This document shows positions 1 through 64,000 of a stretch of DNA of 64,000 nucleotides, in pieces. The notes beneath the pieces are model-generated. The model was given only the letters and a program-made list of their open reading frames with translations. It had not been told where the DNA came from and made no database searches. Source of the stretch: Cardiobacteriaceae bacterium (GTDB taxonomy: Bacteria; Pseudomonadota; Gammaproteobacteria; Cardiobacteriales; Cardiobacteriaceae). The translations under genes and the position numbers were made by a program. Each line of letters starts with the position of its first letter. Within the stretch, counting starts at the first letter, position 1. Location: the NCBI GenBank assembly GCA_030525785.1, contig JAUNEA010000004.1:69359-133358 (forward strand). Reading direction: 5' to 3'.

Positions 1-1454
1 ATGGCTGAACTCAGCGCTTTAATCGCCTCTTCCTGCCCAAAGACTAACTGATTCAATTCAAATTCCAAACTTCGTAACACATTGCGCTCATTTTGATTCA
101 CATTCTGCTCAGGCACACGCGCTACATCAGCAACCATCTTCTCAATCAAGCGCACATCAATTTCTTGGCTACGTTCTTCTTCACTCAACAAACGCTGACG
201 AGCTCCAGCTTCATCTAATAAATCAATAGCTTTATCAGGGAGATGGCGATCGTTGATGTAACGATCTGATAAACGCACCGCCGCTTCAATCGCCTCATCG
301 CTGTATTTAATCTCGTGGAATTGCTCATAATAGGATTTTAAGCCTTGCAAAATAGCGATGCTGTCTTCAACACTTGGCTCACGAACCACCACTTGATGAA
401 ATCTTCGCGCTAAAGCATGATTTTTTTCAAAAACTTGACGATATTCTTTTTCTGTCGTTGCGCCAATGGTTCGCAGTTTGCCACTGGATAAAGCAGGCTT
501 TAAAAGCTCGGATACGTCCATTTTGTTATCACTAGAGCCACCTGAGCCAATGATGGTATGAATTTCATCAATGAACAAAATAGCTTTAGGCTTTTTCTCA
601 ATCTCATCTAAAAGCGCTTTGACTCGATTCTCCAAATCTCCACGATATTTTGTGCCAGCAATCAATGCGCCAGAATCCAAGCTGTAAATCACATTATCTT
701 GCAACAAGGGTGGCACGCGTTTTTCCACAATTGCCTTCGCCAAGCCTTCTACAATTGCTGTTTTACCAACGCCTGCTTCACCCACCAAAATGGGGTTATT
801 TTTACGGCGACGGCAAAGGGTTTGCATCATGCGTTCTAATTCCTTTTCCCGACCAATCAGCTGATCAATCTCGCCCTTAAGCGCTTTGGCGTTCAAATCG
901 CTGGTGTACTCTGCTAATGCCGATTTTTTGGCACTTTTGGCTTCTTCTTTGAAATCTTTTTTGCCCGATTTATCCTCACGCTCCTCTTCTTTCATGACTT
1001 CTTCTGCTTCGCGTACAGGTGGCAAAACCTCTTCATGATGAATTTTTTCCACCAAGTCAGCACGACTAACGCCATGTGTTTTCAAATAATAAGCTGCGTA
1101 AGAATCTTCTTCGCTAATAATTGCCACTAAGGCATAAAGCACCGATACCTCTTTCTTACCCATATTACGCATATGCAACAAGGCTCGTTGAATCATACGC
1201 TGGAAAGTCGTTGTTGGCTGAGGAGAAAAACGTTCACGTTCCACAACCGTGCAATGCTCCTGCAAATAACGCTCTAAATCTCCACGCAAAGCCTCAATAT
1301 TGACTTTTAAATCCATCAACATCTGAGAAACTATTTGATTTTCTAACAAAGAAATCAAAAGATGCTCGAGTGTGAGATATTCATGGCGGGCTTTTTGAGC
1401 GTTGATGTACGCTCGATCAATGGCTTGCTCTAAAGGCTTGGACAATGCCGTCAT
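1..1454 (-). CDS. clpA: ATP-dependent Clp protease ATP-binding subunit ClpA (N-terminal ~485 aa; C-terminus lies beyond window start)
   Basis: Reverse-strand translation starting from the ATG at 1454..1452 gives [37 protein letters not shown]..., with the two ClpA N-domain repeats and the first AAA+ Walker A ([10 protein letters not shown]). It runs continuously to coordinate 1. Confidence 0.9.
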
Positions 1455-1506
1455 TCTGTTTGCTCCTAACAGTTAATCTTGTTCTTCAAATAATGCTCAC
1501 AGCTAT

Positions 1507-1812
1507 TTATGAGCGCGAAATGGGTTGTAATTGGCAACGAAGTGGAAAACCAGCCTCTCGCGCCAAATGATGTACTTGCTCGGCTTTGGTCTCAGCAATT
1601 TCTTTACAGTAAATGCCACAAACAGCAGAACCTTGTTCATGTATGCGATACATCACACGCTCCGCCTGAACGTAATCCATCTGGAAAATATCCATGAGGA
1701 TATCAATCACAAAATCCATCGTGGTCACATCATCATTTAACATCACCACCTGATAATGGGGCGGTGGAGCCAATTTAGGTGGGGCAACCACTGCCTCAAC
1801 ACTTCCAGACAT
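1507..1812 (-). CDS. clpS: ATP-dependent Clp protease adaptor ClpS
   Basis: Tracked ORF 1507..1830; the ClpS-like sequence (MSGSVEAVVAPPKLAPPPHYQVVMLNDDVTTMDFVIDIL...) starts at the second ATG, preceded by a GAGGAGAAGGAA RBS. It lies immediately upstream of clpA as in the conserved clpS-clpA arrangement. Confidence 0.88.
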   Translation of the reverse strand: MSGSVEAVVAPPKLAPPPHYQVVMLNDDVTTMDFVIDILMDIFQMDYVQAERVMYRIHEQGSAVCGIYCKEIAETKAEQVHHLAREAGFPLRCQLQPISRS

Positions 1813-1959
1813 TTCCTTCTCCTCACACAAAGCGCTTTGCTTTCTCTCTTAACTATATGGGGGCAATCTAGCCAAAGACAAGATGCCCCCATCGATTTTT
1901 ATGCCCGCACGACACCCACTTAGCTACGCCCGATGAGCCATGTTGACAAAGCGCTTTCT

Positions 1960-2325
1960 TTAATCATTCAAAATTTCCTCCAACGCCTCCGTCAGTTCAT
2001 CATCGGTAAAGGGCTTGTATAAAAAGCCCTGTGCTCCCAATTTGATGGCTCGAATACCTGTGGCTTTATCGGATAACGCTGAAATCACCAAAATTTTTGC
2101 CTGCGCATCAAATTGACAAATAGCTGAAATACACGCTAATCCGTCCATTTGTGGCATGGTTAAATCCATCGTGACCATATCTGGCTTATGCTTTTTATAC
2201 AAATCTAAAGCCTCTGCACCGTTGCTTGCTACGGCAACGACCGCTAAATTCACTTGTTTCACATTACGCTCAATGCGACTGCGAATAATCTGTGAATCAT
2301 CAACAATCATGATTGTTTTCTTCAT
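1960..2325 (-). CDS. single-domain CheY-like response regulator (receiver only)
   Basis: 121 aa: MKKTIMIVDDSQIIR...DMVTMDLTMPQMDGL...KILVISALSD has the receiver-domain acidic pocket and the conserved D and K. RBS AGGTGGGAAG. It starts 15 nt after the stop of the upstream kinase. Confidence 0.8.
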   Translation of the reverse strand: MKKTIMIVDDSQIIRSRIERNVKQVNLAVVAVASNGAEALDLYKKHKPDMVTMDLTMPQMDGLACISAICQFDAQAKILVISALSDKATGIRAIKLGAQGFLYKPFTDDELTEALEEILND

Positions 2326-2340
2326 GGCTTCCCACCTAAA

Positions 2341-4368
2341 TTAACCAGCATTTTCTTGCGGAAAGACAAACGTAAATCGCGTATAACGACCAGCTTGTGT
2401 ACTCACTTTCAACTGCCCACCATGTTGTTGCACCGTATGTTTCACCATATCCAAGCCAACACCACGACCCGCATCACCATCTTGTTTCTCTGCGGTCGAT
2501 AATTGTGAACGGAACATAATGCCCAAAAGCGCTTTGCTATCTAGCTGTTGCGCTTGTTCTGGTGTATACCAACCCAGCTCAACGGCCTTCTTGCGAATCG
2601 CCCCGTAATCCAAACCGCGACCATCGTCTTCAATATCCAAACAAAGCGCTTTGTTTTGTTGGCTGATGCGAATGTTTACCACGCCTGTTTCTCGTTTGCC
2701 CAAAGCGCTTCGCTCTGTGGGAGATTCAATACCATGCACCACTGCATTACGCACAATTTGTACCGCAATAGAGCGAATAATAGAGCGCCATTCTTCAGAC
2801 ACAAGCTGTATCCCATCAACATGGCAAACCACATTTTTACCTTGCCGTTCTGCCAAATCATGAACAAACTCTTGGTAATAAGCGCTTTGTGAATCGCTTT
2901 TTTCAGAGATTGCTTGTTTGGCTTGGCTCGCTGTCTCGGCTGGTTGCTTAACATGAGGATTGCACAACAAACTCGACATCACTTGCGTCAAGTTAATCAA
3001 TTCCTCTAAAAGCACCACCAGCCCCAAGAAATGTTCGCCCTGTAGATTTTTTTGTTGTTGCTTAGCCTTTAATTCCTCTTCAAATTTCTCACAAAGCTCT
3101 TGGAAAACACTCAACTTCAAAGCGCTTGCCTCTCCTTTCAAGCTATGTACCAAACGCCAAATTTGTTCTGTTTTGATGCGTAAAGTATGTTGTTCATAAG
3201 CTTGCTCACGCAGCAACTCATTGATTTGAACACAGCTCTTCTGAGAATTGAGCAAGAAATCTTGCACGGTTACTCTATCGCCTACTTGAATAGCTTTCAA
3301 CATAGGCAAATAGCTGCCTCCTGAAGAACGCTCAGATTTTAACTGTTCAGCCAATAAAACATCACTGGTAATATCGCTAATATTGACCAACACTTTCGAA
3401 ATCTCAGATTGTTCGTAAACACGTTTAAAATCAAATCTCAAATAACGCTGACGCTTATTGAGCATGACCTCTACTTGATCTAATGGATTCAACGATTCAA
3501 TCAATTTAGCTTTGACTTTGGGATTATAAAGCTGCTCGATAAATTCTTCTGTACTAAGAATCAAATCTCTATCACGAATAATGGTTTGCAAAACATCTAC
3601 TAGCCCTAAGCCTTCCAGATGCTCATCACCTAAAAATTCATACAATCGATGCGAACGCAATTGTCCGATACTTAAATCCCTTTCCAACAAGAATAAACCT
3701 GTATTCACTGTTGCCATAATATCACTCATCTCACGCTGAGCCACCGCCAATTCCGCATCAACGCGAATAAAGCGCTTTACATAGACCAAGAGTAAGAAAA
3801 TGAAATAAATGACGGAAAACAGCGCTAAACCAGCCTGCAAATAATTAGATTTGCGAATAATATTTTGCGATTCTTCGTAATAGCCATAATAAATGGGACC
3901 CACCAAATCATAATAGTTAATGGAAAGACGCTCATAAATATAATTTGCCAAATCCAATTCATCTTCACGTTTTTTTGATTTGATACGCTCTAATTTTTCT
4001 CTGAACGTTTTCCATTGGCTAGATAATTCATTGATTTTTCCATCTAAACCCAGTTCAGCCATCATCTCGGTATGCTCAAACATATATTTGAGGTTATCGT
4101 CCACTTCAACAATATATTTATCAATCTCTTCAATCAACTTATTTTTTCTTTCACTATCTTCGCTTTCAAGAGCCAATAAGTTGTTAGAATGCACACCAAT
4201 ATGTAACATCGCATCGCTAATATCACCAATATAGTCCACATTTTCCAAAGCCCTAATGTTCTTTTGTGACCATTGATAAGTTGCCAAAAAGCCAAAAGAC
4301 AAAATGACCAACCAAATAATCAATGCCACGATTAATCCAAAATATCGATTTTGTTTTAATTGCCCCAT
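2341..4368 (-). CDS. membrane-anchored CheA-family histidine kinase (HPt domain + HATPase_c, no CheW-like domain)
   Basis: 675 aa. Two hydrophobic segments (res ~10-33 and ~180-203) flank a ~145 aa extracytoplasmic region. HPt-type phosphorylation motif HSLKGEASALKL. C-terminal catalytic boxes: N box IVRNAVVHGIE, G1 DDGRGLD, G2 GRGVGLDMV. Confidence 0.7.
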   Translation of the reverse strand: MGQLKQNRYFGLIVALIIWLVILSFGFLATYQWSQKNIRALENVDYIGDISDAMLHIGVHSNNLLALESEDSERKNKLIEEIDKYIVEVDDNLKYMFEHTEMMAELGLDGKINELSSQWKTFREKLERIKSKKREDELDLANYIYERLSINYYDLVGPIYYGYYEESQNIIRKSNYLQAGLALFSVIYFIFLLLVYVKRFIRVDAELAVAQREMSDIMATVNTGLFLLERDLSIGQLRSHRLYEFLGDEHLEGLGLVDVLQTIIRDRDLILSTEEFIEQLYNPKVKAKLIESLNPLDQVEVMLNKRQRYLRFDFKRVYEQSEISKVLVNISDITSDVLLAEQLKSERSSGGSYLPMLKAIQVGDRVTVQDFLLNSQKSCVQINELLREQAYEQHTLRIKTEQIWRLVHSLKGEASALKLSVFQELCEKFEEELKAKQQQKNLQGEHFLGLVVLLEELINLTQVMSSLLCNPHVKQPAETASQAKQAISEKSDSQSAYYQEFVHDLAERQGKNVVCHVDGIQLVSEEWRSIIRSIAVQIVRNAVVHGIESPTERSALGKRETGVVNIRISQQNKALCLDIEDDGRGLDYGAIRKKAVELGWYTPEQAQQLDSKALLGIMFRSQLSTAEKQDGDAGRGVGLDMVKHTVQQHGGQLKVSTQAGRYTRFTFVFPQENAG

Positions 4369-4446
4369 GATATTCTATTTATCCTTTCTATGGATTTAAA
4401 AAACCCTAATTCAATTTTTTAAGCCATAATTTCATTTTCATTTGTT

Positions 4447-5706
4447 CTATGCGCGAACCGCATATTTCCCTTCCACAATCCATTTATAGGTTGTAAGCGC
4501 CTCTAAGCCCATAGGCCCACGCGCATGAAGTTTCTGCGTACTAACAGCTACCTCAGCGCCTAAACCAAATTGTGCGCCATCAGTAAAACGCGTACTCGCA
4601 TTCACATAAACTGCTGCAGCATCAACACGCTGCACGAACTCGCGTGCCAATTGTGGATTTTGCGTCAAAATTGCCTCCGAATGCGCAGTTCCGTACGTTG
4701 CAATATGCTCCAAAGCGCTTTGGAAATTCTTCACCACAACCACATTCAAATCGTAAGAAAGCCATTCATGACTAAGCTGTTCTTCACTCAAATGCTGCAC
4801 ACGACCCTTTTTACCTTCCAGATATTTATAAGCTTTTTTATCCACGTGCAAACAAACTTCATCGCCTAAATATTTAGCAAGCTTAGGCAAAAAGCTTTTA
4901 GCAATAGATTTTTGCACCAGTAGCGTTTCAACAGTATTGCAAGTGCTGGGTCTTTGGGTTTTTGCATTTTTGATAACCTCCAAACTCTCTGCCACCAAAG
5001 CGCTTTCCTCTACAAAAATATGGCAAACCCCAATACCCCCCGTCATCACAGGAACCCGAGCATGCTCGCGACAAAATGCCTGCAATGCCTCGCCTCCTCG
5101 TGGAATAATCACATCAACATAACGCTCTAGCTGCAATAATTCACGTATAGAATCGCGTTCAAAATTAGGCAACATCTGTACGCTATCACTCTCAACGCCC
5201 TCCTCCGACAAAGCGCTTTGAATAAGAGATAAAAGCGCTTTGTTGGTCTCGCGCGTTTCTTTACCACCACGCAAAATCACAGCATTGCCTGTTTTCAAAC
5301 ACAAACTCGCCACATCAATGGTGACATTAGGGCGAGATTCATAAATAACCCCAACAACCCCCAGTGGCACGCATTCACGGCGAATCAAAAGCCCACTGTC
5401 TAACCGACCACCATCAATTACGCGCCCAATAGGATCAGGCAATTGCATCACTTTGCGCACTTCTTGTGCCATATTCTGTAAACGTTCAGGGGTCAAGGTT
5501 AAACGGTCAATCATCGCTGCACTTAAACCTTGCTCTTCTGCTTTTTTCACATCATCAGCATTAGCTTGCAAAATGCTCTCTTGCTGCTGCTCCAAGCCTT
5601 CTGCAATTTTTTGCAACACCGCATTTTTCTTCACGTTTGATAATAAAGCTAAACTTGATGCTGCTCGTTTAGCTTGTTTCCCCAATTCCAACACACTCAT
5701 CATCAT
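4447..5706 (-). CDS. proA: gamma-glutamyl phosphate reductase (glutamate-5-semialdehyde dehydrogenase)
   Basis: 419 aa with a full-length ProA-like aldehyde dehydrogenase fold sequence. It lies directly downstream of proB in proBA order. Confidence 0.9.
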
Positions 5707-5734
5707 TCCTTTCTCAAAACCCTATTCAACAATC

Positions 5735-6835
5735 CTACAACACCACCATATCATCACGATGTACCACTACCGAACCGTAAGCATAGCCTAAAAGTTTTTC
5801 AATATCAGATGATTGCGCCCCTGAAATCCGCTGCAATGCTTCACTACCGTAACGAACCATAGCGCGCGCCAACACACGCCCTTTTTCATCTTCAATACTC
5901 AAAACCTCACCACGCGAAAATGTTCCCACAACTTGCTTCACACCAGCAGGCAATAGGGATTTTTGTTGCTCCAAAAGCGCTTTAACAGCCCCCTCATCAA
6001 TCACCAATTTGCCTGCCACAGGCGCTGCAAATAGCCATTGCTTCCGCCCATCAAGCAAATGCTTCGGCACCAAAAACTTCGTTCCAATTGCTACACCTTG
6101 CGCCAAATCCACCAGTACATTGGCTCGCATGCCATCAGCAATAATGGTCTCAATGCCCGAACGAGTGGCAACATCAGCGGCAATGATTTTGGTCATCATA
6201 CCCCCCGTTCCCAAACCAGAAACACTGCCACCTGCCATTTGCCGAATGGAAAGCGTGATTTCAGGAACCTCTGCAATTAGCTGCGCCTCTGGATTAGAGC
6301 GTGGGTCAGCGTTAAATAAGCCTTGTTGGTCGGTCAGTAGATAAAGCTGTTTTGCCCCTGCCAAAATGGCAATGAGCGCTGAGAGATTGTCGTTATCGCC
6401 CACTTTAATCTCCGCTGCTGCCACAGCATCGTTTTCATTGACAATCGGCACAATGCCTTGCTCAAGCAAAGCGCTTAGAGTATCTCGCGCATACAAAAAC
6501 CGCTCTCTATCTTCCATATCAGCGCGAGAAACCAGCATCTGTCCCACTTTAACACCATAAATATCAAACAATTGAGACCATATATTCATCAACTGCGTTT
6601 GCCCAACTGATGCTAGCATTTGCTTGGAGGCAATGGTTTTGGGCAAGTCGGGGTGATGCAGATAATCACGTCCTGCTGCAATAGCTCCTGAGGTTACCAG
6701 CACAACGGTATGCCCTAAATTGCGCAAATGCACCATCTGTTGTACCAGCGAAAGCATATGAGCTCGATTAAGTGAACGACTACCTGCTGTAAGAACACTA
6801 GTTCCCAGCTTAACCACCACCATTTTTCCCATCAT
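5735..6835 (-). CDS. proB: glutamate 5-kinase (with C-terminal PUA domain)
   Basis: 366 aa: [16 protein letters not shown]... amino-acid kinase fold, C-terminal PUA-like region ([21 protein letters not shown]). Confidence 0.9.
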
Positions 6836-9838: not shown

Positions 9839-9900
9839 TCAAAGCGCTTTGAATATTCCATTTTGATGGGAATTCATTCAAAGCGCTTTTTTTCTTTTTT
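9839..9900 (+). terminator. hairpin + T-run between dctP and dctQ (intra-operon attenuator/terminator)
   Basis: The inverted pair TCAAAGCGCTTTGAATATTCC ... GGAATTCATTCAAAGCGCTTT forms a ~20-bp imperfect stem, followed by TTTTTTTCTTTTTT. Confidence 0.45.
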
Positions 9901-11837: not shown

Positions 11838-11860
11838 TTCCTAAACCCCAACCTAAAAAT

Positions 11861-11905
11861 AAAGCGCTTTGGATTCTTATAAAACCCAAAGCGCTTTGTT
11901 ATTTT
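11861..11905. terminator. bidirectional terminator between convergent dctM and purF
   Basis: AAAGCGCTTTGG ... CCAAAGCGCTTT inverted pair with a ~13-nt loop, flanked by A-run and T-run. Confidence 0.45.
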
Positions 11906-15608: not shown

Positions 15609-15728
15609 GATGTTCTCCTCAGCCACTTGAATAAAAGTAGGATTATACCCTTGCTACAAAGCGCTTTGTGTGGCTCTTTTGGGCATAAAAAAAGCACGCA
15701 AGGCGTGCTGATAAACGAGGAAATTTAT

Positions 15729-15805
15729 TGGTAGGCCCAGAGGGACTTGAACCCCCGACCAAGCGATTATGAGTCGCCTGCTCTAACCGACTGAGCTATA
15801 GGCCC
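15729..15805 (-). tRNA. tRNA-Ile2 (anticodon CAT, lysidine-type; formally indistinguishable from tRNA-Met by anticodon alone)
   Basis: Reverse complement GGGCCTATAGCTCAGTCGGTTAGAGCAGGCGACTCATAATCGCTTGGTCGGGGGTTCAAGTCCCTCTGGGCCTACCA. The anticodon stem-loop GGCGACTCATAATCGCTTGG matches the E. coli ileX-type tRNA-Ile(LAU) rather than initiator or elongator Met. A CCA end is encoded. Confidence 0.85.
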
Positions 15806-15948
15806 TAAAAGGCTGGCAATTATAACAAAGCGCTTTGCGCCATGCTAGTTTCCTAAACAATCTTACCCAAATCCTAAGCTTTTAAGCAGAAACTCCAGTT
15901 TACTCATCATCTTTTTTATAATGCTCGCTTTGTTTTTCGGATTACGTT

Positions 15949-17752: not shown

Positions 17753-17800
17753 TCCCACAAAAAAAGCGCTTTGAGATACCAACCCAAAGCGCTTTTTCTC
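17753..17800. terminator. bidirectional terminator between convergent esterase genes
   Basis: AAAAAAAGCGCTTTGAG ... CCCAAAGCGCTTTTTCTC inverted pair with flanking A and T runs. Confidence 0.4.
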
Positions 17801-24530: not shown

Positions 24531-24738
24531 CTCCTGTTAAGCCAAGCCATGACTTGCCTTGCTATGGCTTTATAAATCCCAAAAGTAAAAATTATCGCAC
24601 AAAGCGCTTTGGCAAAACATCAAAGCAAAGCGCTTTGGCGGTATAAACTCTATTCAGTATCAGGTATAATTTTCACAATTTTTGCCCAATACATTCAGGG
24701 CAATGCCTTCCCATCAAACATCATAAAGGGGCGTTAAG

Positions 24739-26463: not shown

Positions 26464-26500
26464 AAAAAGCGCTTTGTGAAAGTAGCAAAGCGCTTTTTAC
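26464..26500. terminator. bidirectional terminator (AAAAAGCGCTTTG ... CAAAGCGCTTTTT)
   Basis: Inverted pair of the 12-mer with a 9-nt loop, flanked by A-run and T-run, between convergent genes. Confidence 0.4.
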
Positions 26501-33026: not shown

Positions 33027-33474
33027 GTTACACACCGCATAGGTGGCTTAGAAAAGAAAATTTAGAAATAAAATTTGGCATAGTTAGTTACACACCGCAT
33101 AGGTGGCTTAGAAAAAGCGCTTTGCGATAAGCGTTATACACTCGTTGTTACACACCGCATAGGTGGCTTAGAAATTTCCATGCAAATTTGCCATTGCTGT
33201 TTTCACGTTACACACCGCATAGGTGGCTTAGAAATGATTAGATAACTGCTGATTCATCTTTTATTTGTTACACACCGCATAGGTGGCTTAGAAAGCGTAA
33301 TCTTCGAGTTTTGCCACGCTTTGCTCGTTACACACCGCATAGGTGGCTTAGAAAAAAGGCACAGGTTCTTCAACACGCTGATAAGTGTTACACACCGCAC
33401 AGGTGGCTTAGAAAAAAGGCACAGGTTCTTCAACACGCTGATAAGTGTTACACACCGCACAGGTGGCTTAGAAA
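33027..33474 (+). CRISPR. CRISPR array, type I-F-like: 8 x 28-nt repeats GTTACACACCGCATAGGTGGCTTAGAAA with 7 x 32-nt spacers
   Basis: Exact 60-bp periodicity. The repeat has a CACC-GCATA-GGTG hairpin and the conserved CTTAGAAA 3-prime end of I-F repeats. Repeats 7-8 carry a T-to-C change in the loop, and spacers 6 and 7 are identical (duplicated terminal unit). No cas gene occurs anywhere in the window. Confidence 0.9.
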
Positions 33475-43903: not shown

Positions 43904-44437
43904 TTAGTTAATCTCTGCCTCAATGGAAGCAATCAAACTTTCAACCAGTAGCAAGACATCCTCACGTTGTCTCGCATCAATCTCAAACACAGGGAATAAT
44001 AAATTTTGTGCTTGCAAAATCTCTAAGCCTTGAGAAACGGTCAAGTGTGCATCAGGCAAATCGGTATGTGTAATTCCTACCACGATATGCGCCATATTGT
44101 GTTCATTAAAATAGCGCACATAATAACTCAGCTCATCTTTAGCTTTTGCACTGGAGCCGTCAATCAAAATGATGGCACCCAAAGCACCTTCTGTCACAAT
44201 TCGCCACACCAACTCAAAGCGCTCTTGACCAGGAGTTCCATACAAGCCAATTTTGGTATCATTGCCCAAAACTACTTGCCCATAGTCAATACCTACAGTG
44301 GTTAATAATTTACCGTGCGTTTTGGTATCTGTGTTATCGACATCACCACGCACCACATCAACATCAGATAACGCACGAATTGAGGTGGTTTTCCCAGCCC
44401 CCATGCTACCTGCAAAAATGATTTTATACTCTTGCAT
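43904..44437 (-). CDS. MglA-like small Ras-family GTPase
   Basis: 177 aa. G1 is AGSMGAGKTT. G3 is GTPGQ with Thr in place of the usual Asp, as in MglA (TVPGQ). The G4 region ITHTD is degenerate. Confidence 0.7.
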   Translation of the reverse strand: MQEYKIIFAGSMGAGKTTSIRALSDVDVVRGDVDNTDTKTHGKLLTTVGIDYGQVVLGNDTKIGLYGTPGQERFELVWRIVTEGALGAIILIDGSSAKAKDELSYYVRYFNEHNMAHIVVGITHTDLPDAHLTVSQGLEILQAQNLLFPVFEIDARQREDVLLLVESLIASIEAEIN

Positions 44438-44469
44438 TACAATCCCTTACACCATAATCCAAACGGATA

Positions 44470-45447
44470 CTACATGCCAAACTTCTCACGCAGACGGCGT
44501 AATAAGCCACGTTTTTCTTCGATTTTTTGCGTATTCTGAGCAACCGCCGTTGGGTTAACAGATTGCACAGGCGTTACACGCTTGCTCATCTCGTTACTTA
44601 ATTGTAACTGACCAGCTTCCAAAGTTGCAAATAAGAAACGACGAACCAACACTTCAGGATAGGAGGTTTTATCGCGTAACATCTTGATTGTTACTGCCTC
44701 TGTTTGTGCACAAGCTGCTAAACGTAAGGCTTCCGTCCGCCCCTCACGCCCTAAAGGTTGTGGCCAACGAACCAAACGATAATATCCATCTTCTTTGATT
44801 TCCTTGCCACTCATCTGCGATTGCCAGATGGTTTCAAACATCCACAAATCCAAATTAAGTTTACGCGCTGATTCTGGAATATCGTCCAAGTAAGATTCGT
44901 GCCAAGTCCAATTTTCAATATCTGGAATATTTTCACGAGGATAAGTGATATAGACTGAGCTAGTAGCAAAAACAATCCAAGTGATATTTTGCTCATAGTC
45001 TAGACGTAATACAGGGTATTTTTTTGCCCGAATAATCTCCAAAAGCGCTTGAGCATTGTTTTCAGAACCTGTTTTAGTAGATTTCACTTCTTCTACCACT
45101 GCCTGTACAGGTTGCTCGTCAAGAATGTGCGCAAGCCATGCCTGAATATGAGCTTCATCTTTTGAGCGCAAATCCAATGCTTGCAAGCCATATGCCGTCA
45201 GAATCTTCAAAGCGCTATCACTGTTATAAGCGTAAGCCACAATCGCGGTAGTTTGCGATAGATAACGCTTAATTTGAGGAGTAGCTAAGAAAACTGCATT
45301 GACCACCACTACGTTAAGTGTCGTGTGATTAGCAGGAACCCACTGAACTTCATAGCGCTTCTGTTTATTGTTTACAATCTTCTTAATTCTTTCTTCTGAC
45401 TCAGGAGCAAAGCCCAATAAGCATATATTGTATTGTTCTGACATCAT
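44470..45447 (-). CDS. hypothetical protein (325 aa) co-oriented with the GTPase/Roadblock genes
   Basis: No recognisable catalytic motif. The N-terminal ~120 aa has an alternating beta-alpha pattern (pseudo-receiver-like); the C-terminal tail is basic. Start placed at MMSEQYN. Confidence 0.5.
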   Translation of the reverse strand: MMSEQYNICLLGFAPESEERIKKIVNNKQKRYEVQWVPANHTTLNVVVVNAVFLATPQIKRYLSQTTAIVAYAYNSDSALKILTAYGLQALDLRSKDEAHIQAWLAHILDEQPVQAVVEEVKSTKTGSENNAQALLEIIRAKKYPVLRLDYEQNITWIVFATSSVYITYPRENIPDIENWTWHESYLDDIPESARKLNLDLWMFETIWQSQMSGKEIKEDGYYRLVRWPQPLGREGRTEALRLAACAQTEAVTIKMLRDKTSYPEVLVRRFLFATLEAGQLQLSNEMSKRVTPVQSVNPTAVAQNTQKIEEKRGLLRRLREKFGM

Positions 45448-45514
45448 TTTACTCCATCTTAGAAACAAGACTACCCCAACAATGTGGGGTAGATCCAGCA
45501 AAAAACCTTAAATC

Positions 45515-45871
45515 TTATGAAAAATCAAGATCTTTTTCAAATGAACGCAACTGATGACGTGCCATTGCAAGATTGGCGCGCGAACGATCCAAAACCAAAT
45601 ATAAGAATAAGTTATCATTGCGCTCTAATGGGCGAATCAAGTGATAAGCTTTTTCCAAAGAAATCAAGATATCTTCAACTCGCTCTGTTAAACCCAAAGA
45701 ACGAGCAACACGGCGTTTTGCATTCAATACTTCAGAGTTACCTGCAGCAGCAAGTTCTAAATCCATGCCACCACCTTCACTTGCCATCAATAATCCACTT
45801 TCAGCATCTACGAGTGCTGCAGCTTTGAATCCATCAATATCATTCAATGCACCAAGACTTAATTTAGCCAT
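45515..45871 (-). CDS. Roadblock/LC7-domain protein, paralog B
   Basis: 118 aa beginning [30 protein letters not shown]..., about 80% identical to paralog A. RBS GGAGAAAAG. The tracked ORF has a 35-codon N-terminal extension without homology. Confidence 0.65.
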
Positions 45872-46134
45872 TTTCTTTTCTCCATAGAAAAAATGTTTCA
45901 ATTGAAATAGAACTTTGCGAGCCAGTCCTATAAACACCCTCACCTCTCCACGTTGAATCAAATAAATTTTCTCCAAAGCTTTAGCCTTGGTGATCTTGTT
46001 TATTGATGACCCTCAACATCAAGAAGCCAATCCATAAGTTATTTTCGGATTATAACATTTTACTCACCATAAAACAAGCTTTATATTTATAACCCTACTA
46101 TTAAATTACAAGATCATTATCCAATCTTACAATA

Positions 46135-58260: not shown

Positions 58261-61200
58261 ATGACCACACACCATCTCGCCTTCCAAATCCTAAAACAAA
58301 CCCTTGAGCCAAAGCCCCATTTGTTGGTCTTGCCTGACCACAAAAGCGCGGAATACACCTTCCATATGCTCCATTATTGGCTCCATCAGCATCAACCAGC
58401 CCCCAACCCAGCCCAACAAAGCGCTTTGCCAAGCCTCTACTGGTTCTCCGATTGGGAAACCCTCCCCTATGACACCCACAGCCCACACCCTGATTTAATT
58501 GCCCACCGTTTACGCACACTCAGCGATATTCGCCACAGCCAAGCACTCCATCACCAAAGCGCTTTGGTCGTGTGCAGCGTCAAAGCCTTATCTCAACGCT
58601 TAACGCCACCCTCGCATTTTGACCGTCACGGCATTCACATCGCCATTCATGACACCCTTGAACAAAGCGCTTTGTTAAATAGGCTCCAGCAAGCTGGCTA
58701 CCAAAAAACCGTTTTTATCGCTAACAAAGGGGAATACGCCACCAAAGGCTCAGTGGTGGATTTGTTTCCGTTGAATGCTGACTATCCCATTCGGATTGAG
58801 TTTATGGACAATCGTGTGGAGAGTTTGCGTTATGTGGATTTAACCACGCAGCAAACCCTAAACCGTGTGAGCAAAATCTTGTTGTTGCCCAGAAGTGAAC
58901 TGGATTTATCCGATCGTGGACGGATTTGTTATCGGCAGTCTGCACGACATTGGTTTGGTGAAAAAGTGCAACAAAGCGCTTTGTATCAGCAAATCAGCGA
59001 ACACAAGCCCGTACAAGGTTTGGATTATTATCTGCCACTTTTTTTCGATGAAACCTCAAGCCTACTCGATTATCTTCCCCACGATACCAAACTCTGGCTT
59101 TGCGATGATGCTTGGGCGCAAGCTGAGCGTTTTTATCACAGTGTAGAGCGGCGCTACGAACGCTTGAATCCTCACCGTGAACACCCACTCCTACCACCTG
59201 AAGCCGTGTTTCAACCGCCCAAAGCGCTTTGGAGCCAACTTGAAAAACTGCCACCTCTTCATCTCAAAGCGCTTTGTACGCCGATTGTTTTTCAAGGCAA
59301 TGCCAAAGCACGCTTGGAACAGTGGCAAGCATTCCAACTCGACCCACGCCCCATCATCTGCCACAGCCAAAGCGAGGGCAAGCGCGAGTTATTGGAAGAA
59401 AAACGCTATTTACCCAAAGCGCTTTGCCTTGTCTCTCCCTTAAGGCATTCCTTTGAAACCCAAGAGGAAATCCATCTCAGCGAATGGGATTTGAGCGAAC
59501 ACCCCATCTACCACACTCGCCCCCAAACCAATCCCGAACAAGCTCTCCATCATCTAGGGCATCTCCAGCTTCAAGAGCCACTGATTCATCGCGATTATGG
59601 CATTGGGCGTTATGGTGGCTTAACTCAGCTGGAAGATGATGGTGAGGAAATGCTGACATTGCATTACGCCAAAGGCACCACCGTCTACTTACCTCTCACC
59701 GATTTTGACCTCATCAGCAAATATCACGGCGATCCCGAAAGTGCGCCCTTACATGAATTGGGTGGCAAAGTGTGGCAAAAACTCAAATCCAAAATGGAGC
59801 AAAATGTTCACGATACCGCCGCCGAACTCCTCGAACTTTACGCCAAACGCGAACAAGCTCAAGGCTTGCCTATTCCTACGCCTGAAAGCCTAAGCGCTTT
59901 TTCGGCGGAATTTCCCTTTGAGGAAACGGAAGACCAAATGATGGCGATCGATGCCGTGATACAAGACTTAGCCAAATCTCGCCCTATGGATCGCATGGTT
60001 TGTGGCGATGTGGGTTTTGGCAAAACAGAAGTGGCGATTCGCGCAGCTTATATTGCTGCTCAAGCTGGTTTCCAAACTGCCGTCATCGCTCCCACCACCC
60101 TGCTTGCCGAACAACACGCCAGCACCTTCCGTGACCGTTTCTCCAACACCGCCATCACACTCGAAAGCCTCAGCCGTTTCAAAACCAAAAAAGAGCAACA
60201 AAGCGCTTTGGAACGTCTGCAAGATGGCAGACTGGATATCGTGATTGGTACCCATCGCTTGTTGCAAAAAGATGTGCAATTTAAAAATCTTGGCTTGGTT
60301 ATCATTGATGAGGAGCAGCGTTTTGGCGTAAAACACAAAGAAACTCTCAAAGCGCTTCGGGAAAACATCAATCTCTTAACCCTAACCGCCACCCCCATTC
60401 CACGCACCCTCAATCTCGCCCTTTCTGGCTTACGAGATTTAAGCCTTATCACCACCGCGCCAAAAGGTCGCCGCCCCATTCATACCCATTGGATTGGCTT
60501 TGATTGGGACGTGATTGCCGAAGCTTGCGAACGCGAATTGGCGCGTGGCGGGCAAGTGTATTTCTTGCACAACGATATTCAAACCATCGAACGCCAAGCT
60601 CGTATGTTGCAAGAATTATTACCACAAGCGAGGATTGTGTTTGCTCATGGGCAAATGCCTGAGCGAGAACTCGAAACCATCATGCATGATTTCGAAAATC
60701 ATCATTACGATTTACTCCTCACCACAACCATCATCGAAAGCGGCATCGATATTCCCAATGCCAACACCATCATCATCAACCACGCCGATAAATTGGGGCT
60801 TTCGCAATTGCATCAATTGCGTGGGCGCGTTGGGCGTTCGCATCATCAAGCTTATGCCTATTTGATGACCCCTGAGCCTACAACGCTCAACAAAAATGCC
60901 CAACGCCGTTTAGAGGCTTTTGTCGGCATTGAGAGTTTGGGCGCAGGGTTTGTGTTGGCAAGTCAAGATTTGGATATTCGAGGCGCAGGCGAGATTTTAG
61001 GCAGTGAACAAAGTGGCATCAGCGATGGCTTTGGGCTAAGTTACTATCTTGATTTGTTAGAAAGAACCATTGCACGACTGAAAAAAGGCGAGATGACTCT
61101 TGAGTCTCAAAGCGCTTTAGAGCGTTGCCAGTTTGAACATTTTGGACGCGCGATGGTGCCTGAGGATTATGTGTTTGACCCACAAATTCGCCTACAGATG

Positions 61201-61554
61201 TATCACCAATTGGCGCGTACACAAAGCGCTTTGGAACGTGAGCAGCTCAAAGCGCTTTGGATTAACCAATTCGGCAAACTACCTCAAGAGGCGGAAAACC
61301 TCATCTCCAAAACTGCCCTCAAACAACAAGCCGAGCAAATGGGTATCACCAAAATCCATCTCACCCACCAAGCCATCACCCTCACCATCGGCAACAATCC
61401 TCAATTTGACCGCATGAAACTGTTTGTCCTCATGCAACAAATGCCCCAACAGTATCGCCTCCTCAATCCTCATCAAGTGCGTATGCAGCATCAACATCAG
61501 GAGTTGTCGAAAGTTTTGGGGCAATTGGCAACATGGTTACAAGAGATTGGTTAA
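58261..61554 (+). CDS. mfd: transcription-repair coupling factor
   Basis: 1097 aa with UvrB-homology N-terminal modules, an RNAP-interacting domain, and superfamily-2 helicase motifs (GDVGFGKTEVA; DEEQRFG; QLHQLRGRVGR). Confidence 0.92.
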   Translation: MTTHHLAFQILKQTLEPKPHLLVLPDHKSAEYTFHMLHYWLHQHQPAPNPAQQSALPSLYWFSDWETLPYDTHSPHPDLIAHRLRTLSDIRHSQALHHQSALVVCSVKALSQRLTPPSHFDRHGIHIAIHDTLEQSALLNRLQQAGYQKTVFIANKGEYATKGSVVDLFPLNADYPIRIEFMDNRVESLRYVDLTTQQTLNRVSKILLLPRSELDLSDRGRICYRQSARHWFGEKVQQSALYQQISEHKPVQGLDYYLPLFFDETSSLLDYLPHDTKLWLCDDAWAQAERFYHSVERRYERLNPHREHPLLPPEAVFQPPKALWSQLEKLPPLHLKALCTPIVFQGNAKARLEQWQAFQLDPRPIICHSQSEGKRELLEEKRYLPKALCLVSPLRHSFETQEEIHLSEWDLSEHPIYHTRPQTNPEQALHHLGHLQLQEPLIHRDYGIGRYGGLTQLEDDGEEMLTLHYAKGTTVYLPLTDFDLISKYHGDPESAPLHELGGKVWQKLKSKMEQNVHDTAAELLELYAKREQAQGLPIPTPESLSAFSAEFPFEETEDQMMAIDAVIQDLAKSRPMDRMVCGDVGFGKTEVAIRAAYIAAQAGFQTAVIAPTTLLAEQHASTFRDRFSNTAITLESLSRFKTKKEQQSALERLQDGRLDIVIGTHRLLQKDVQFKNLGLVIIDEEQRFGVKHKETLKALRENINLLTLTATPIPRTLNLALSGLRDLSLITTAPKGRRPIHTHWIGFDWDVIAEACERELARGGQVYFLHNDIQTIERQARMLQELLPQARIVFAHGQMPERELETIMHDFENHHYDLLLTTTIIESGIDIPNANTIIINHADKLGLSQLHQLRGRVGRSHHQAYAYLMTPEPTTLNKNAQRRLEAFVGIESLGAGFVLASQDLDIRGAGEILGSEQSGISDGFGLSYYLDLLERTIARLKKGEMTLESQSALERCQFEHFGRAMVPEDYVFDPQIRLQMYHQLARTQSALEREQLKALWINQFGKLPQEAENLISKTALKQQAEQMGITKIHLTHQAITLTIGNNPQFDRMKLFVLMQQMPQQYRLLNPHQVRMQHQHQELSKVLGQLATWLQEIG

Positions 61555-61584
61555 TCAGGCACAAAGCGCTTGGGTGAAAATGAG

Positions 61585-62343
61585 TTAGGCATTTTGGTTT
61601 AAGGTGCGCAAAATATCCAAAAAGAATTGGCTTTCATCATCATCAACCCATGCCAACCCATGATGCCAGCCTAAATTATGGAAAACACGCTGATATTTTG
61701 GCTGCTCACTCAAAAACAAAAAGATTTTTTGAATAGCTTTGGCATAATCAATAGAGCTTTCGTGTATCAAAAAAACATGGTGCAAAACTTCCAAACGGCT
61801 TTCAATGAGTATACGGTATTCCGATTGTCGGCTTGGGCTAAGTCCATAAAAATAATCAGCATAAACAGCACCTACGCCAATATCCAATCCGCCAACTTTT
61901 CTCATTACCGCAGGTAAATGTCCCACATAATGCCAGCAAATATCTTTGGGGCTAAAATCCACAGCTTCTAACAACAATTGGCTGACCAACGTCAATTCCT
62001 TATTGGATAAAGAAACCATATCCAAAGGCTTAGGCAAATCCTCTAATGTTTTAATTTCACTATAAATACTGGAAAACAGAATAATCTCATCACTCACTTC
62101 TTTGGGCTTCATAAAAGCTTCATAATGGTATTTTTCTGTTAATTCAATCACATCAAAAGGATTGGCATACACCAATTCAGGGCGATGCTCCTGAAGAAGG
62201 CTATCAAATTCCTCATGGTTTTCAGGCGTTAATAAAACCACATCACGATTTAATTCATTTTGCAGCATATAAGTCAATAAACGCCAATCAATATAAACTT
62301 CAGGGCTATAATCTGGCGCAACCAATAATTTAATCACTTTCAT
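61585..62343 (-). CDS. PhnD/SsuA-like periplasmic-binding-fold protein lacking a signal peptide
   Basis: 252 aa; type-2 substrate-binding-protein-like sequence but no N-terminal signal sequence. Its start overlaps (ATGA) the stop of the upstream PAS gene. Confidence 0.5.
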   Translation of the reverse strand: MKVIKLLVAPDYSPEVYIDWRLLTYMLQNELNRDVVLLTPENHEEFDSLLQEHRPELVYANPFDVIELTEKYHYEAFMKPKEVSDEIILFSSIYSEIKTLEDLPKPLDMVSLSNKELTLVSQLLLEAVDFSPKDICWHYVGHLPAVMRKVGGLDIGVGAVYADYFYGLSPSRQSEYRILIESRLEVLHHVFLIHESSIDYAKAIQKIFLFLSEQPKYQRVFHNLGWHHGLAWVDDDESQFFLDILRTLNQNA

Positions 62344-62813
62344 GCCTGAGCCTCCTCTTTACGCATTTGTTGATAAAGCGCTTCGTAATGGGCAATTTTT
62401 TCAGCAGAGGCCTGTCTTCGAACAGAAGCATAACCCACAATTTTTCCTTGACGATAACAAGGAACAACGGTCGCATAAACCCAATAATAATCCCCATTTT
62501 TGCGCAAATTTTTCACATAACCTGACCATTTCTTCCCTTTTTTGACCGTTGCCCACAAATCCGCAAAAGCGCTTTGGGGCATATCAGGGTGGCGAATCAA
62601 ATAATGTGGCGCACCAATAAGTTCTTCTTTTTCATAGCCACTTAATAAAACAAAGGCGTCATTACAATGTGTAATCACGCCCTGTAAATCGGTTCGAGAG
62701 ATAATCAATTGCCCTGCTGGGTAGGGAAATGCTTGCTGGCTAACCCAAACAGATTTGCTCGTTCCATCATAGAAGTTTAGCTGATGCTCGGTAAGAGATG
62801 CCTTAGAGTTCAT
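62340..62813 (-). CDS. stand-alone PAS-domain protein
   Basis: About 157 aa, ISRTDLQGVITHCNDAFVLLSGYEKEELIGAPHYLIRHPDMP...GDYYWVYATVVP fits the PAS fold pattern. No output domain. Confidence 0.65.
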   Translation of the reverse strand: MNSKASLTEHQLNFYDGTSKSVWVSQQAFPYPAGQLIISRTDLQGVITHCNDAFVLLSGYEKEELIGAPHYLIRHPDMPQSAFADLWATVKKGKKWSGYVKNLRKNGDYYWVYATVVPCYRQGKIVGYASVRRQASAEKIAHYEALYQQMRKEEAQA

Positions 62814-63068
62814 AGGATTTCCCCCTGATTTAGAAATGTAGAAGATCATTATCAGAAAAAACGATGGAAGAGCCTATCTTTCAGAAATGAACTTTTCTTC
62901 ACCTTATTAAAGTTTTTGGGATTACAACAAGATGCGGCAAGACACAACAAAGCGCTTTTTCTCACTCCCTCAACCCATTTACCACCAGCTCATTTAAGCC
63001 ATTGTAAGCAAGGGGAAAAAGAGGAGAAAAAGCGCTTTGTTTGATAAAAGACTTGTATTATCGAATAC

Positions 63069-64000
63069 TTACGCCAGATGATCTCGAGTAGCTTTAAAGA
63101 CAATCTCAGGGAAACGTTCTTGGGTGAGCTGTAAATTGACCCGAGACGGTGCCACATAAACCAGCTGACCATAATGGTCGTGGGCGAGATTTTGGGCGTT
63201 TTTGTCGGTAAAGGCTTTAAGCGCTTTATCGTCTTTGGCTTCAATCCAACGGGCGGTCGCAACGGAGACGGCTTCAAATTGGCAAGTGACATTGTATTCC
63301 GTTGCCAAGCGCTCTTTGACCACATCAAATTGCAATACCCCTACTGCGCCCAAAATCAAATCATTGCCCAAAAGCGGTTTGAAAAACTGGGTTGCGCCTT
63401 CTTCGCACAATTGTTCCAAGCCTTTCAAAAGCGCTTTCATTTTCAGAGGGTCTTTTAATTGCACACGGCGGAACAATTCAGGGGCAAAATCGGGAATGCC
63501 TGTGAATTGGAGGTTTTCGCCTTCGGTGAAAGTATCGCCAATTCTGATGGTTCCGTGATTGTGAATGCCAATGATGTCGCCAGCCACCGCATCGTCAATG
63601 TGTTCTCGTTCGGCAGCGAGAAAGGTCAGCGCTTCTGGGATTTTCACATCACGATTAATCCGTACTTGGCGTAATTTCATGCCCGCAGAAAATTTGCCCG
63701 AATTGATGCGCATGAAAGCAATGCGGTCACGGTGTTTGGGATCCATATTGGCTTGAATCTTAAAAATAAAACCGCTGAACTTTTCTTCTGCTGGCTCCAC
63801 CATTCTGCCTGTGGTTTGACGGGCACGGGGCGGTGGGGCAAATTGGGCAAAACCGTTTAACATTTCCCGCACCCCAAAATTGCTGATTGCCGAACCAAAA
63901 TAAACAGGGGTCAATTCCCCACGCAAATAGGCATCGTGGTCAAAAGCGTTGCTGGCTTCTTTGATGAGTTCCACTTCATCACGAAAAGCGCTTATTTCAG
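63069..64000 (-). CDS. prfC: peptide chain release factor 3 (C-terminal ~310 aa; N-terminus beyond window end)
   Basis: Reverse-frame translation is open to the window edge, and the sequence ...[30 protein letters not shown]... matches the RF3 C-terminal domains. Confidence 0.88.

Follow-up and report, generated by a model that had tools for sequence, protein, structure and literature searches.

A perfect 12-bp palindrome, CAAAGCGCTTTG, saturates coding and noncoding DNA across a 64,000-nt stretch (the window) of an uncultured “Cardiobacteriaceae” MAG, a deep-branching relative of Cardiobacterium. On the basis of the analyses described below, this motif appears to be a novel palindromic equivalent of the DNA uptake sequences of Neisseria (DUS) and Haemophilus (USS) and of cyanobacterial HIP1. 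A literature search revealed no earlier report of CAAAGCGCTTTG saturation.

Abundance and coding load of the motif

Exact copies of CAAAGCGCTTTG occur 70 times in the 64,000-nt window, compared to 0.04 expected from dinucleotide shuffles. Exact copies of AAAGCGCTTT number 127 (0.24 expected), and the core AAGCGCTT is present 176 times, whereas an order-3 Markov model built on motif-free sequence predicts only 2.3 copies, an excess that the original prediction of over-representation had anticipated. These forms are nested, such that 127 of the 176 cores extend to AAAGCGCTTT and 70 extend to CAAAGCGCTTTG. The core copies are dispersed as follows.

1..64000, unstranded: dispersed palindrome copies, 176 AAGCGCTT (about 139 in ORFs and about 37 intergenic)

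If up to two mismatches to the 12-mer are allowed, the window carries 187 sites, which agrees with a by-eye estimate of 150-250 copies. The motif is spaced at a mean of 362 bp and a median of 302 bp. Core density is approximately 2.75 sites/kb and is even along the whole window. Furthermore, the sites are distributed more regularly than chance (coefficient of variation 0.81, compared to 0.99 +/- 0.07 when sites are placed at random; P = 0.003). The motif is also not local to the window. It continues past the window end, with 25 cores in the next 7.5 kb, and a sister species carries it in two distinct regions (approximately 72 kb of the host genome and 21 kb of the sister species were covered).

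The motif reads identically on both strands, and the flanks beyond the 12-mer carry zero sequence information. Among one-off 12-mers, the mismatch falls at an outer position in 67 of 69 cases, and single mismatches within the inner 8 bp occur at background levels (49 observed versus 46 expected). The inner 8 bp, AAGCGCTT, are therefore all-or-none, and the outer 2+2 positions are graded.

Approximately 79% of the copies lie within ORFs. When at most one mismatch is allowed, 101 of 139 sites are coding. All three frames are used, yielding QSAL at 51 sites, KAL[C/W] at 31 and xKRFx at 19. The commonest frame is the one composed of preferred codons. The encoded peptides are enriched 6-fold for SAL, 4.5-fold for KAL and 13-fold for KRF, and QSAL appears 29 times in the window versus 0.64 expected. 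The exact 12-mer encodes 28 of these 29 QSAL peptides, whereas codon usage alone predicts 2.3%. Because the QSAL excess uses the exact 12-mer so far above this prediction, the constraint acts at the DNA level rather than at the protein level.

In ortholog alignments, the copies are in frame and without indels, and therefore the sites arise by substitution. The motif remodels proteins at some cost. Site density declines with protein conservation (rho = -0.73, P = 2.5e-4); the motif shuns conserved proteins and favors weakly conserved genes. Three features bear on the effect of the motif on proteins.

58261..61554, plus strand: mfd, with 12 motif sites (7 QSAL, 4 KAL[C/W])
61222..61259, plus strand: in-gene pair of exact 12-mers in mfd, kept in the sister species
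43904..45976, minus strand: 2-kb stretch poor in the motif, with a single core

The 12 sites in mfd match an earlier count of “about a dozen,” and the sister species has 8 of them at the same codon. The motif-encoded peptides were all absent from 58 outgroup Mfd proteins, which have different residues at all 12 sites, and the motif sites in Mfd are thus a derived state. The second copy of the in-gene pair overwrites a glutamate that is 95% conserved. In the one motif-poor stretch, the gene products are an MglA-like GTPase, an unknown protein and an MglB/Roadblock-like protein, which share 98%, 84% and 97% identity, respectively, with the sister species. The scarcity of the motif there shows that it is kept out of strongly constrained proteins.

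Paired copies, lineage distribution and palindrome avoidance

Convergent gaps carry 7.6 sites/kb, and a motif pair is present in five of seven such gaps. All six intergenic pairs that had been called as hairpins fold, with stems of 12-22 bp and z-scores from -4.7 to -7.7.

9840..9890, plus strand: motif-pair hairpin followed by a T-run, 3' of dctP (z -4.7)
11860..11898, unstranded: motif pair with a 15-bp stem in the dctM/purF convergent gap (z -6.95)
17762..17796, unstranded: convergent-gap pair AAAAGCGCTTTG...CAAAGCGCTTTT, with A-run and T-run flanks (z -6.0)
24600..24637, unstranded: two exact 12-mers spaced by 26 bp that fold into a hairpin, 5' of a parA-like gene (z -6.9)
26465..26497, unstranded: pair in a convergent gap, with a 15-bp stem and A-run and T-run flanks (z -5.95)
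62948..63039, unstranded: two copies 80 bp apart, forming a 22-pair stem around a 60-nt interior (z -7.7)

The pair at 11860..11898 looks like a bidirectional terminator, and the inverted pairs in general are predicted terminator hairpins, as in DUS. Close pairs hold only about 22 of the 176 copies.

The sister species shares approximately 74% amino-acid identity with the host and 45% identity at 4-fold sites, meaning that synonymous sites are saturated. Regardless, the two species share the exact codon position of 26 out of 37 coding sites. Identity to the sister species is 0.92-1.0 within the 12 bp and falls to background, approximately 0.70, just outside. The conserved footprint is a sharp 12 bp, and motif sites have been held over a very long divergence. 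Selection on each site individually would predict such conservation of position just as well. Among the sister-species SNPs, 14 of 20 fall within one 540-bp mosaic tract, a sign of recombination in that species. Among related genomes, the motif is shared by the sister species, and none of the six additional Cardiobacteriaceae lineages checked is motif-saturated. Motif saturation is therefore limited to one lineage consisting of the window species and its sister.

The motif contains nested GCGC, AGCGCT and RGCGCY methylase-type sites. The expectation that GCGC and AGCGCT would normally be avoided was not borne out, as outside the motif there are 325 GCGC sites (372 expected) and 21 AGCGCT sites (17 expected). 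The strongly avoided palindromes are instead CCGG (0 observed, 53 expected), GGCC (21 observed, 246 expected) and GATC (63 observed, 268 expected). This clade-specific purge indicates strong restriction-modification or methylation pressure that is common to the clade.

Relation to HIP1, DUS and USS

All in-silico-testable genomic signatures of an uptake sequence were recovered, in keeping with the original reading of the motif, but the HIP1 class fits at least as well as DUS/USS because the motif is perfectly two-fold symmetric and contains nested GCGC/AGCGCT sites of the methylase type. HIP1 (GCGATCGC) and the motif are both perfect palindromes with an 8-bp all-or-none core, and both recur every few hundred base pairs with quasi-regular spacing in coding and noncoding DNA and in all frames. 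Likewise, both contain nested methylase-type sites, spread by substitution rather than insertion, and keep their positions between species beyond codon expectation. They differ in sequence and in host, which is cyanobacterial for HIP1 and a Cardiobacteriaceae-related gammaproteobacterium for the motif. Unlike HIP1, the motif would be recognized over 12 bp and its paired copies are predicted terminator hairpins. HIP1 raises transformation in a manner that depends on methylation, and recent work puts it forward as a transformation signal of this kind, although its role is still unsettled.

To our knowledge, the experimentally established uptake sequences (DUS and USS) are all asymmetric, and HIP1 is the only palindromic precedent. 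DUS comprises GCCGTCTGAA and its dialects, and its receptor is the minor pilin ComP. Membership of the motif in the Neisseriaceae DUS is ruled out by sequence, because CAAAGCGCTTTG is a perfect palindrome and is not in the GCCGTCTGAA family. The two are nevertheless alike in that they span 10-12 bp, are strongly over-represented with graded outer positions, are lineage specific, form inverted pairs of the terminator type and keep their positions in core genes. As predicted with regard to DUS, the motif density is above typical values, being two to three times higher. DUS copies are found in ORFs in only approximately 35% of cases (PMC2817400), compared to approximately 79% for the motif.

The Pasteurellaceae USS (AAGTGCGGT / ACAAGCGGT plus AT-rich flanks) is also ruled out, because the motif has another core and no information beyond 12 bp. 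The claim that the motif matches neither DUS nor USS in sequence is thus upheld. We take the half-site CAAAGCGCT to match ACAAGCGGT at 6 of 9 positions, a resemblance that is probably a coincidence. The asymmetric USS also extends into AT-rich flanks, whereas the motif is without flank signal. Both are evenly spaced, form terminator-type pairs and reside mostly in ORFs (65% for the Haemophilus influenzae USS; PMC2817400), and in both cases perfect copies far exceed mismatched copies (PMC1939737 for USS). Findlay and Redfield found that USS and DUS favor the frame with preferred codons and enrich their own peptides (PMC2817400). The motif shares with USS this peptide enrichment and the preference for such frames and for poorly conserved genes, but its effect on peptide frequency is 4.5- to 45-fold versus approximately 2-fold for USS (PMC2817400). 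Position-biased mismatches are known for USS and DUS as well, and one-off forms occur at approximately 3-fold the expected number in H. influenzae and approximately 6-fold in Neisseria gonorrhoeae, with over-representation of 2.0 and 4.8 (PMC1939737). Unlike these cases, one-off forms of the inner core are at background here, and therefore specificity or maintenance is sharper for the motif.

Polar chromosomal motifs such as Chi and KOPS are ruled out, because they are asymmetric and strand biased whereas the motif has the same sequence on either strand. In Campylobacter jejuni, the short palindrome RAATTY (CtsM) is recognized when methylated and governs transforming DNA. RAATTY differs in that it is only 6 bp and neither is hyper-abundant nor remodels coding sequence.

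Candidate explanations for motif accumulation

The strong pair hairpins and T-runs at gene ends, including those in five of seven convergent gaps, are what would be seen if an RNA or DNA hairpin (terminator or attenuator) were the primary function and the coding copies were incidental. We consider this very improbable, as a lone 12-mer yields only a 4-bp stem, the large majority of copies stand singly in ORFs rather than in close pairs, and single in-gene copies are conserved as well as paired ones. High copy number and palindromic structure might also suggest a miniature mobile or REP-like repeat propagating through insertion events. This alternative is effectively refuted, because there is zero information past 12 bp, the in-frame copies without indels have a substitution origin, and REP/MITE elements are longer (20-40+ bp) and intergenic.

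It is unlikely, but worth weighing, that the enrichment is a by-product of biased repair with no role in uptake. In such a ratchet, which Elhai put forward for HIP1, a methyltransferase would mark the palindrome, and a mismatch-correction or nicking system would convert near matches and repair damaged copies. A perfect palindrome that nests GCGC, AGCGCT and RGCGCY, an all-or-none inner 8 bp resembling an enzyme recognition site, and the purge of CCGG, GGCC and GATC in the same clade are all compatible with this idea. However, GCGC and AGCGCT are not enriched outside the AAGCGCTT context, which excludes an ordinary 4- to 6-bp methylase/Vsr pair and would require a specificity of 8-12 bp. In addition, one-off variants occur at neither reduced nor elevated frequency, the 64-kb window revealed no gene for a methyltransferase or a Vsr-like protein, and for HIP1, the model system, the evidence has come to favor transformation. 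Quite unlikely as well is the possibility that the copies are sites for an abundant dimeric DNA-binding protein involved in nucleoid structure, segregation or global architecture, with each site under purifying selection. A perfect 12-bp palindrome is a typical target of a helix-turn-helix dimer, and the regular spacing and sharp footprint would suit such a protein. Moreover, unrelated metagenome contigs of high GC content contain operator-like arrays of the same sequence (TCAAAGCGCTTTGA), and ATAAGCGCTTAT boxes are present at promoter regions of another Cardiobacteriaceae MAG. Against this, most copies are in ORFs where they force replacements, one of them at the 95%-conserved residue in Mfd; copies merely 26 bp apart are both kept; and the several thousand sites extrapolated genome-wide would each need selection. 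We know of no site for a nucleoid or segregation protein, including parS, matS and the SlmA- and Noc-binding sites, that comes within orders of magnitude of the density of the motif.

The likeliest cause, to which we give roughly even chances, is a sequence-specific drive tied to natural transformation, which would explain the motif as follows. A two-fold-symmetric, presumably dimeric component of the transformation pathway would prefer duplex DNA bearing the motif, acting either during uptake at the type IV pilus/competence pore or afterwards, while the DNA is processed or recombined. This component may read a methylated GCGC/AGCGCT center, like HIP1 recognition. The preferred fragments would then replace their homologues by recombination, and mutations that create the motif would therefore be over-transmitted and those that destroy it reversed. 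Through this molecular drive, substitutions would build up the motif at any position that the protein can accommodate, and the motif would then stay. Pairs in convergent gaps would base-pair together and be co-opted as terminator hairpins. Within this explanation, the receptor, any methylation and a bias in uptake or recombination are inferred.

No competence genes, pilin receptor or DNA methyltransferase were found within the 64-kb window, and a PilQ search recovered no sequences from the clade. A neighboring MAG has pilMNOPQ. The host context resembles that of DUS, in that the family uses type IV pili and has transformable species; its members C. hominis and D. nodosus are reported to be naturally transformable via type IV pili. 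For the lineage that carries it, the motif would represent a DUS/USS/HIP1-type clade “watermark” whose sequence belongs to neither class.

Abundance and specificity of the palindrome

By eye, the original prediction had estimated 150-250 copies of a 12-bp palindrome in the window, or one every 250-400 bp. The copy estimate was accurate: the core AAGCGCTT is present 176 times with a mean spacing of 362 bp (median 302 bp), compared to 2.3 copies expected under an order-3 Markov model fitted to those parts of the window that lack the motif. The longer forms are likewise in excess, with 127 exact copies of the 10-mer AAAGCGCTTT (0.24 expected) and 70 of the full 12-mer CAAAGCGCTTTG (0.04 expected from dinucleotide-preserving shuffles), in a window with a G+C content of 44.7%. 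Sites that differ from the 12-mer at one or two positions number 69 and 48, respectively. Among the 127 copies of the 10-mer, the adjacent bases are C at position -1 in 91 and G at position +1 in 100, and a position count over the same copies gave no signal farther out. Therefore, the unit is a perfect 12-bp palindrome rather than the end of some longer repeat.

The cores are spaced more regularly than random (coefficient of variation 0.81 versus 0.99 +/- 0.07, P = 0.003), and gaps of less than 100 bp are fewer than expected (23 versus 42), terminator pairs notwithstanding. Furthermore, the motif is not confined to the window. We covered ~72 kb of this genome and ~21 kb of its sister species, a relative with ~74% amino acid identity. 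The density is unchanged over 7.5 kb past the window end and is equal or higher in the sister species, where one region of 10.6 kb (51.5% G+C) contains 33 cores and another of 10.9 kb (49%) contains 31; this species keeps the same motif although its base composition differs.

Mismatches are distributed unevenly across the motif. In 67 of the 69 one-mismatch sites, the change lies in the outermost two positions of one end or the other, and only 2 sites carry it within the inner eight. For the 8-mer, variants with one mismatch (49 versus 46 expected) or two (381 versus 374) are near expectation, and the ratio (observed - expected)/expected is ~75, 0.06, and 0.02 at 0, 1, and 2 mismatches. For the uptake sequence of Haemophilus influenzae (USS), the same ratio is 183, 2.0, and 0.22, and for that of the gonococcus (DUS) it is 392, 4.8, and 0.65 (Bakkali; PMC1939737). 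The inner core of the motif is sharper than either, whereas its outer four positions behave like the graded positions of USS and DUS. Palindromes at the motif center had been described as sequences that are normally avoided. This view was not supported, as AGCGCT (21 observed, 17 expected) and GCGC (325 observed, 372 expected) occur at expected levels outside the AAGCGCTT context. Therefore, whatever reads the motif reads at least 8 bp.

Other palindromes are scarce in this clade. CCGG is absent both from the window (1-64000; 136 +/- 12 in dinucleotide shuffles) and from the sister-species loci (L011 and L100-L103), and GGCC (21/246), GATC (63/268), GGCGCC (2/21), and GTTAAC (1/10) are strongly depleted. 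No depletion of any of these five sites was found in outgroup Cardiobacteriaceae, and the pattern suggests a long-standing, clade-specific restriction-modification pressure.

Placement in genes and predicted terminators and the imprint on proteins

The gene content of the window is ordinary housekeeping (proAB, gdhA, a TRAP transporter, purF, pyrD, obg, tsaE, mnmA, lptCAB-rpoN, mfd, and others), and ~79% of the cores lie within ORFs. As originally proposed, all three reading frames are used: among 101 coding sites (at most one mismatch), 51 encode Q-S-A-L, 31 encode K-A-L-C/W, and 19 encode x-K-R-F-x. The translations are indeed full of these peptides. Among 18,024 residues we counted QSAL 29 times, compared to 0.64 expected from composition. 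The exact 12-mer encodes it in 28 of the 29 cases, whereas motif-free codon usage predicts 2.3% for that codon string, and the motif likewise encodes all 11 KAL[C/W] and 23 of the 26 KRF peptides. The constraint acts on DNA and not on protein.

Enrichment reaches 6-fold for SAL, 4.5-fold for KAL, and 13-fold for KRF, whereas matching tripeptides are only about doubled in H. influenzae, in Actinobacillus pleuropneumoniae, and in Neisseria meningitidis (PMC2817400). The uptake sequences of those three species favor the frame made of preferred codons (PMC2817400), and the same is true here: in the window, no codon is used more often for the amino acid in question than CAA, AGC, GCT, and TTG, respectively, and together these four form the most-used frame. 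Per 1,000 residues, the combined count of QSAL, KAL[C/W], and KRF is 3.1-10.0 in four clade proteins and at most 1.7 in 356 other homologues (fetched proteins P0001-P0360). The motif is thus a practical barcode with which contigs of this uncultured clade, and even its proteins through their content of these peptides, can be recognized at sight.

Site density is ~4.3 per kb in intergenic DNA versus 2.5 per kb in coding DNA. Convergent gaps are the richest class (7.6 sites per kb), and five of the seven hold a motif pair. Because the unit is a palindrome, any two copies are inverted repeats of each other. The six intergenic pairs originally proposed as hairpins all fold, with stems of 12-22 bp and folding z-scores of -4.7 to -7.7, and several have an A-run before the stem and a T-run after it, which is the predicted shape of a bidirectional intrinsic terminator.

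Some other features of the window are recorded here. Its sole RNA gene, a minus-strand tRNA-Met (CAU) at 15729-15805, is flanked on both sides by exact 12-mers at 15657 and 15826 (15657-15837). GC skew is below zero in all of the 4-kb bins (-0.004 to -0.26) and never switches; the window in its entirety lies on a single replichore, and the given strand carries C-rich DNA. A CRISPR array is also present:

Window 33027-33474: orphan CRISPR array of eight 28-nt repeats, GTTACACACCGCATAGGTGGCTTAGAAA, with 32-nt spacers

We take this repeat to be type I-F-like, and the window lacks cas genes. Two of the spacers, 6 and 7, have the same sequence. The motif core is present as AAGCGCTTTG in spacer 2 (33115-33146), and the source DNA of this spacer is for this reason probably of the same clade. 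No protospacers of the array were found locally or in IMG/VR.

Origin, conservation, and distribution of the sites

Across 20 orthologous genes, the window and the sister species share ~74% protein identity, and 4-fold degenerate sites are 45% identical, which means that divergence at these sites is essentially saturated. Over this distance, 26 of 37 window coding sites occur at the exact same codon position in the sister species. Nucleotide identity averaged over these 26 sites is 0.92-1.0 within the 12 bp and ~0.70 at the first outside base (background 0.73), and the width of the conserved footprint is exactly that of the motif. Sites found in one species only coincide with amino acid differences (e.g., QSALP versus KMDRP). 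When 60 Mfd proteins are aligned, the peptides that the motif encodes at the 12 Mfd sites are absent from all outgroups. Moreover, motif-covered Mfd residues lie in less conserved columns (0.48 versus 0.64), and one site overwrites a glutamate conserved in 95% of outgroups. Therefore, the motif is derived, arises by substitution, and costs protein sequence.

Site density falls with protein conservation among the 20 ortholog pairs (Spearman rho = -0.73, P = 2.5e-4), with 0.9 sites per kb in genes that are at least 90% identical and 2.5 sites per kb in the remaining genes. One module is almost motif-free:

Window 43904-45976 and sister-species locus L100 3952-6352: MglA-like Ras GTPase, 343-aa protein, and Roadblock/LC7 (MglB-like) proteins

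Between species that otherwise share ~74% identity, the MglA-like protein is 98% and the MglB-like protein 97% identical, and their sequences indicate an unusually constrained module of putative polarity/motility type. Given this identity and the overall relation between conservation and density, the only conspicuous motif gap, at 43.4-46.5 kb, is attributed to protein constraint. We rejected a recent island as its origin because the sister species has the stretch in a syntenic position and at 97-98% identity.

Sister-species strains from different runs differ at 20 columns, of which 14 form a mosaic within 540 bp of obg (L100 2101-2638 versus L101/L102). None of the 20 columns falls inside a motif footprint. 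Such a mosaic is the signature of a recombination tract and matches what homologous recombination leaves behind.

The window Mfd is identical to a protein of "MAG: Cardiobacteriaceae bacterium" at NCBI, and its next relative, at 72% identity, belongs to the sister species, whose sequences came from Logan assemblies covering several runs. Mfd proteins of all other Cardiobacteriaceae are ~52% identical to that of the window versus 57-88% among themselves, which makes the window clade a deep branch. Related genomes outside this clade lack the pattern: in 15-23 kb from each of six other lineages (TAE3-ERU3, Suttonella sp. R2A3, a lineage of 61% G+C with homologues that their sources label Cardiobacterium, and three more), we observed neither saturation nor an alternative hyper-abundant k-mer.

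One of these six lineages, MAG GCA_030529365 (L097), carries 12 AAGCGCTT cores, 8 of them intergenic, and 7 of these 8 are (A/C)(T/C)AAGCGCTT(A/T)(T/A) boxes within promoter-region tandem units:

L097 2360-2440, 9900-9990, 13320-13370, and 15020-15100: intergenic tandem units of ~31 bp in promoter regions, of the form AAATTTTCTCACC-ATAAGCGCTTAT

These units may be an operator or a REP-like element. We did not accept ATAAGCGCTTAT as a dialect of the motif, as its copies sit in the ~31-bp intergenic units and the coding DNA is unsaturated.

A metagenome scan for pairs of 12-mers returned 78 loci, none of them saturated, and no further saturated lineage in that collection. The matches comprise satellites of eukaryote-like appearance, tandem repeats of 31 bp, arrays that resemble operators in high-GC bacteria, and isolated hairpins. 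On unrelated high-GC contigs, TCAAAGCGCTTTGA forms triplets or pairs at 21-22-bp spacing (L020 3179-3235, L024 2734-2790, and L084 3135-3190); these arrays look like operators, and the same palindrome appears to be a transcription factor site elsewhere. Three AT-rich contigs (L026, L044, and L046; 28-32% G+C) carry tandem satellites of ~21 bp (CCAAAGCGCTTTTTACACACA) that look eukaryotic and unrelated to the bacterial motif. A genome-collection scan with Mfd matched only distant Lachnospiraceae proteins, which served as negative controls, and viral scans for motif pairs yielded no motif-dense phage.

Relation to known elements and candidate mechanisms

To our knowledge, established uptake sequences come from only two bacterial families, Neisseriaceae and Pasteurellaceae, and for 30 years there has been debate over what the cyanobacterial HIP1 palindrome does. 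The original prediction saw the signature of an uptake sequence in the motif while finding a match to neither DUS nor USS. The resemblance extends to DUS, USS, and HIP1 in every respect tested, but the motif is not a member of DUS or USS because sequence and symmetry both differ, nor is it HIP1, since sequence and host do not agree. It is palindromic with an 8-bp all-or-none core, like HIP1, and shares with DUS and USS the terminator pairs, the proteome remodeling, and a type IV-pilus family with transformable members. The motif joins hallmarks of both classes, at a higher density and with a stronger effect on protein sequence than in either. It is a palindromic 12-bp watermark of a gammaproteobacterial lineage, and no member of its class is denser or has a stronger proteome imprint. 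Full-text literature searches for the exact motif returned only papers on cre/LacI-type operators, and neither these nor searches for uptake sequences in Cardiobacteriaceae gave a prior description.

A DNA-level force, confined to one lineage, overrides codon choice and sometimes protein conservation. Sites are created by point substitution and then held for very long times, in a number that extrapolates to several thousand genome-wide. This behavior matches that described for uptake sequences and HIP1. The mechanism we prefer, to which we assign an even chance, would be a bias in transmission (molecular drive) tied to natural transformation. Motif-carrying fragments would be preferentially taken up or recombined, such that motif-creating alleles would spread and motif-destroying alleles would be reverted. 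The two-fold symmetry suggests that the reader would be a dimeric protein or would recognize a symmetrically methylated GCGC/AGCGCT center. The 540-bp mosaic tract is counted as supporting context, and pilMNOPQ is present in a neighboring lineage. Among the matches listed for a PilQ search with the L097 protein as the query, all are from other lineages and none from the window clade. As further supporting context, the family members D. nodosus (Han et al. 2007) and C. hominis (Tonjum et al. 1985) are reported to be transformable through type IV pili.

A repair or methylation ratchet independent of uptake would also fit a palindrome, as well as the clade's unusual purge of CCGG, GGCC, and GATC. 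Nevertheless, we consider it unlikely, as it requires a specificity of 8-12 bp for which there is no candidate, and a ratchet by a 4-6-bp methylase/Vsr pair is disfavored because neither AGCGCT nor GCGC shows enrichment where it stands apart from the 8-mer. Site-by-site selection for an abundant dimeric DNA-binding protein agrees with the symmetry, spacing, and footprint of the motif but not with its density, its protein-costing occurrence within ORFs, or the fact that sites 26 bp apart are retained, and we consider this explanation quite improbable. Single coding copies in frame predominate, and they originated through substitution; these observations contradict both a primary function as a hairpin, which is very improbable, and a mobile mini-repeat, which has scarcely any chance of being correct.

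We tentatively propose, with somewhat less than even confidence, that the motif could be an independent proteobacterial HIP1-like palindromic signal of self-DNA, read by a two-fold-symmetric and possibly methylation-sensing component of transformation. If true, HIP elements and uptake sequences would be unified as one phenomenon, and the motif clade and its motif-free sister lineages would offer a clean contrast for a receptor search. Because close relatives without the motif exist, a comparison of gene content with and without it could point directly to the recognizing protein or methylase.
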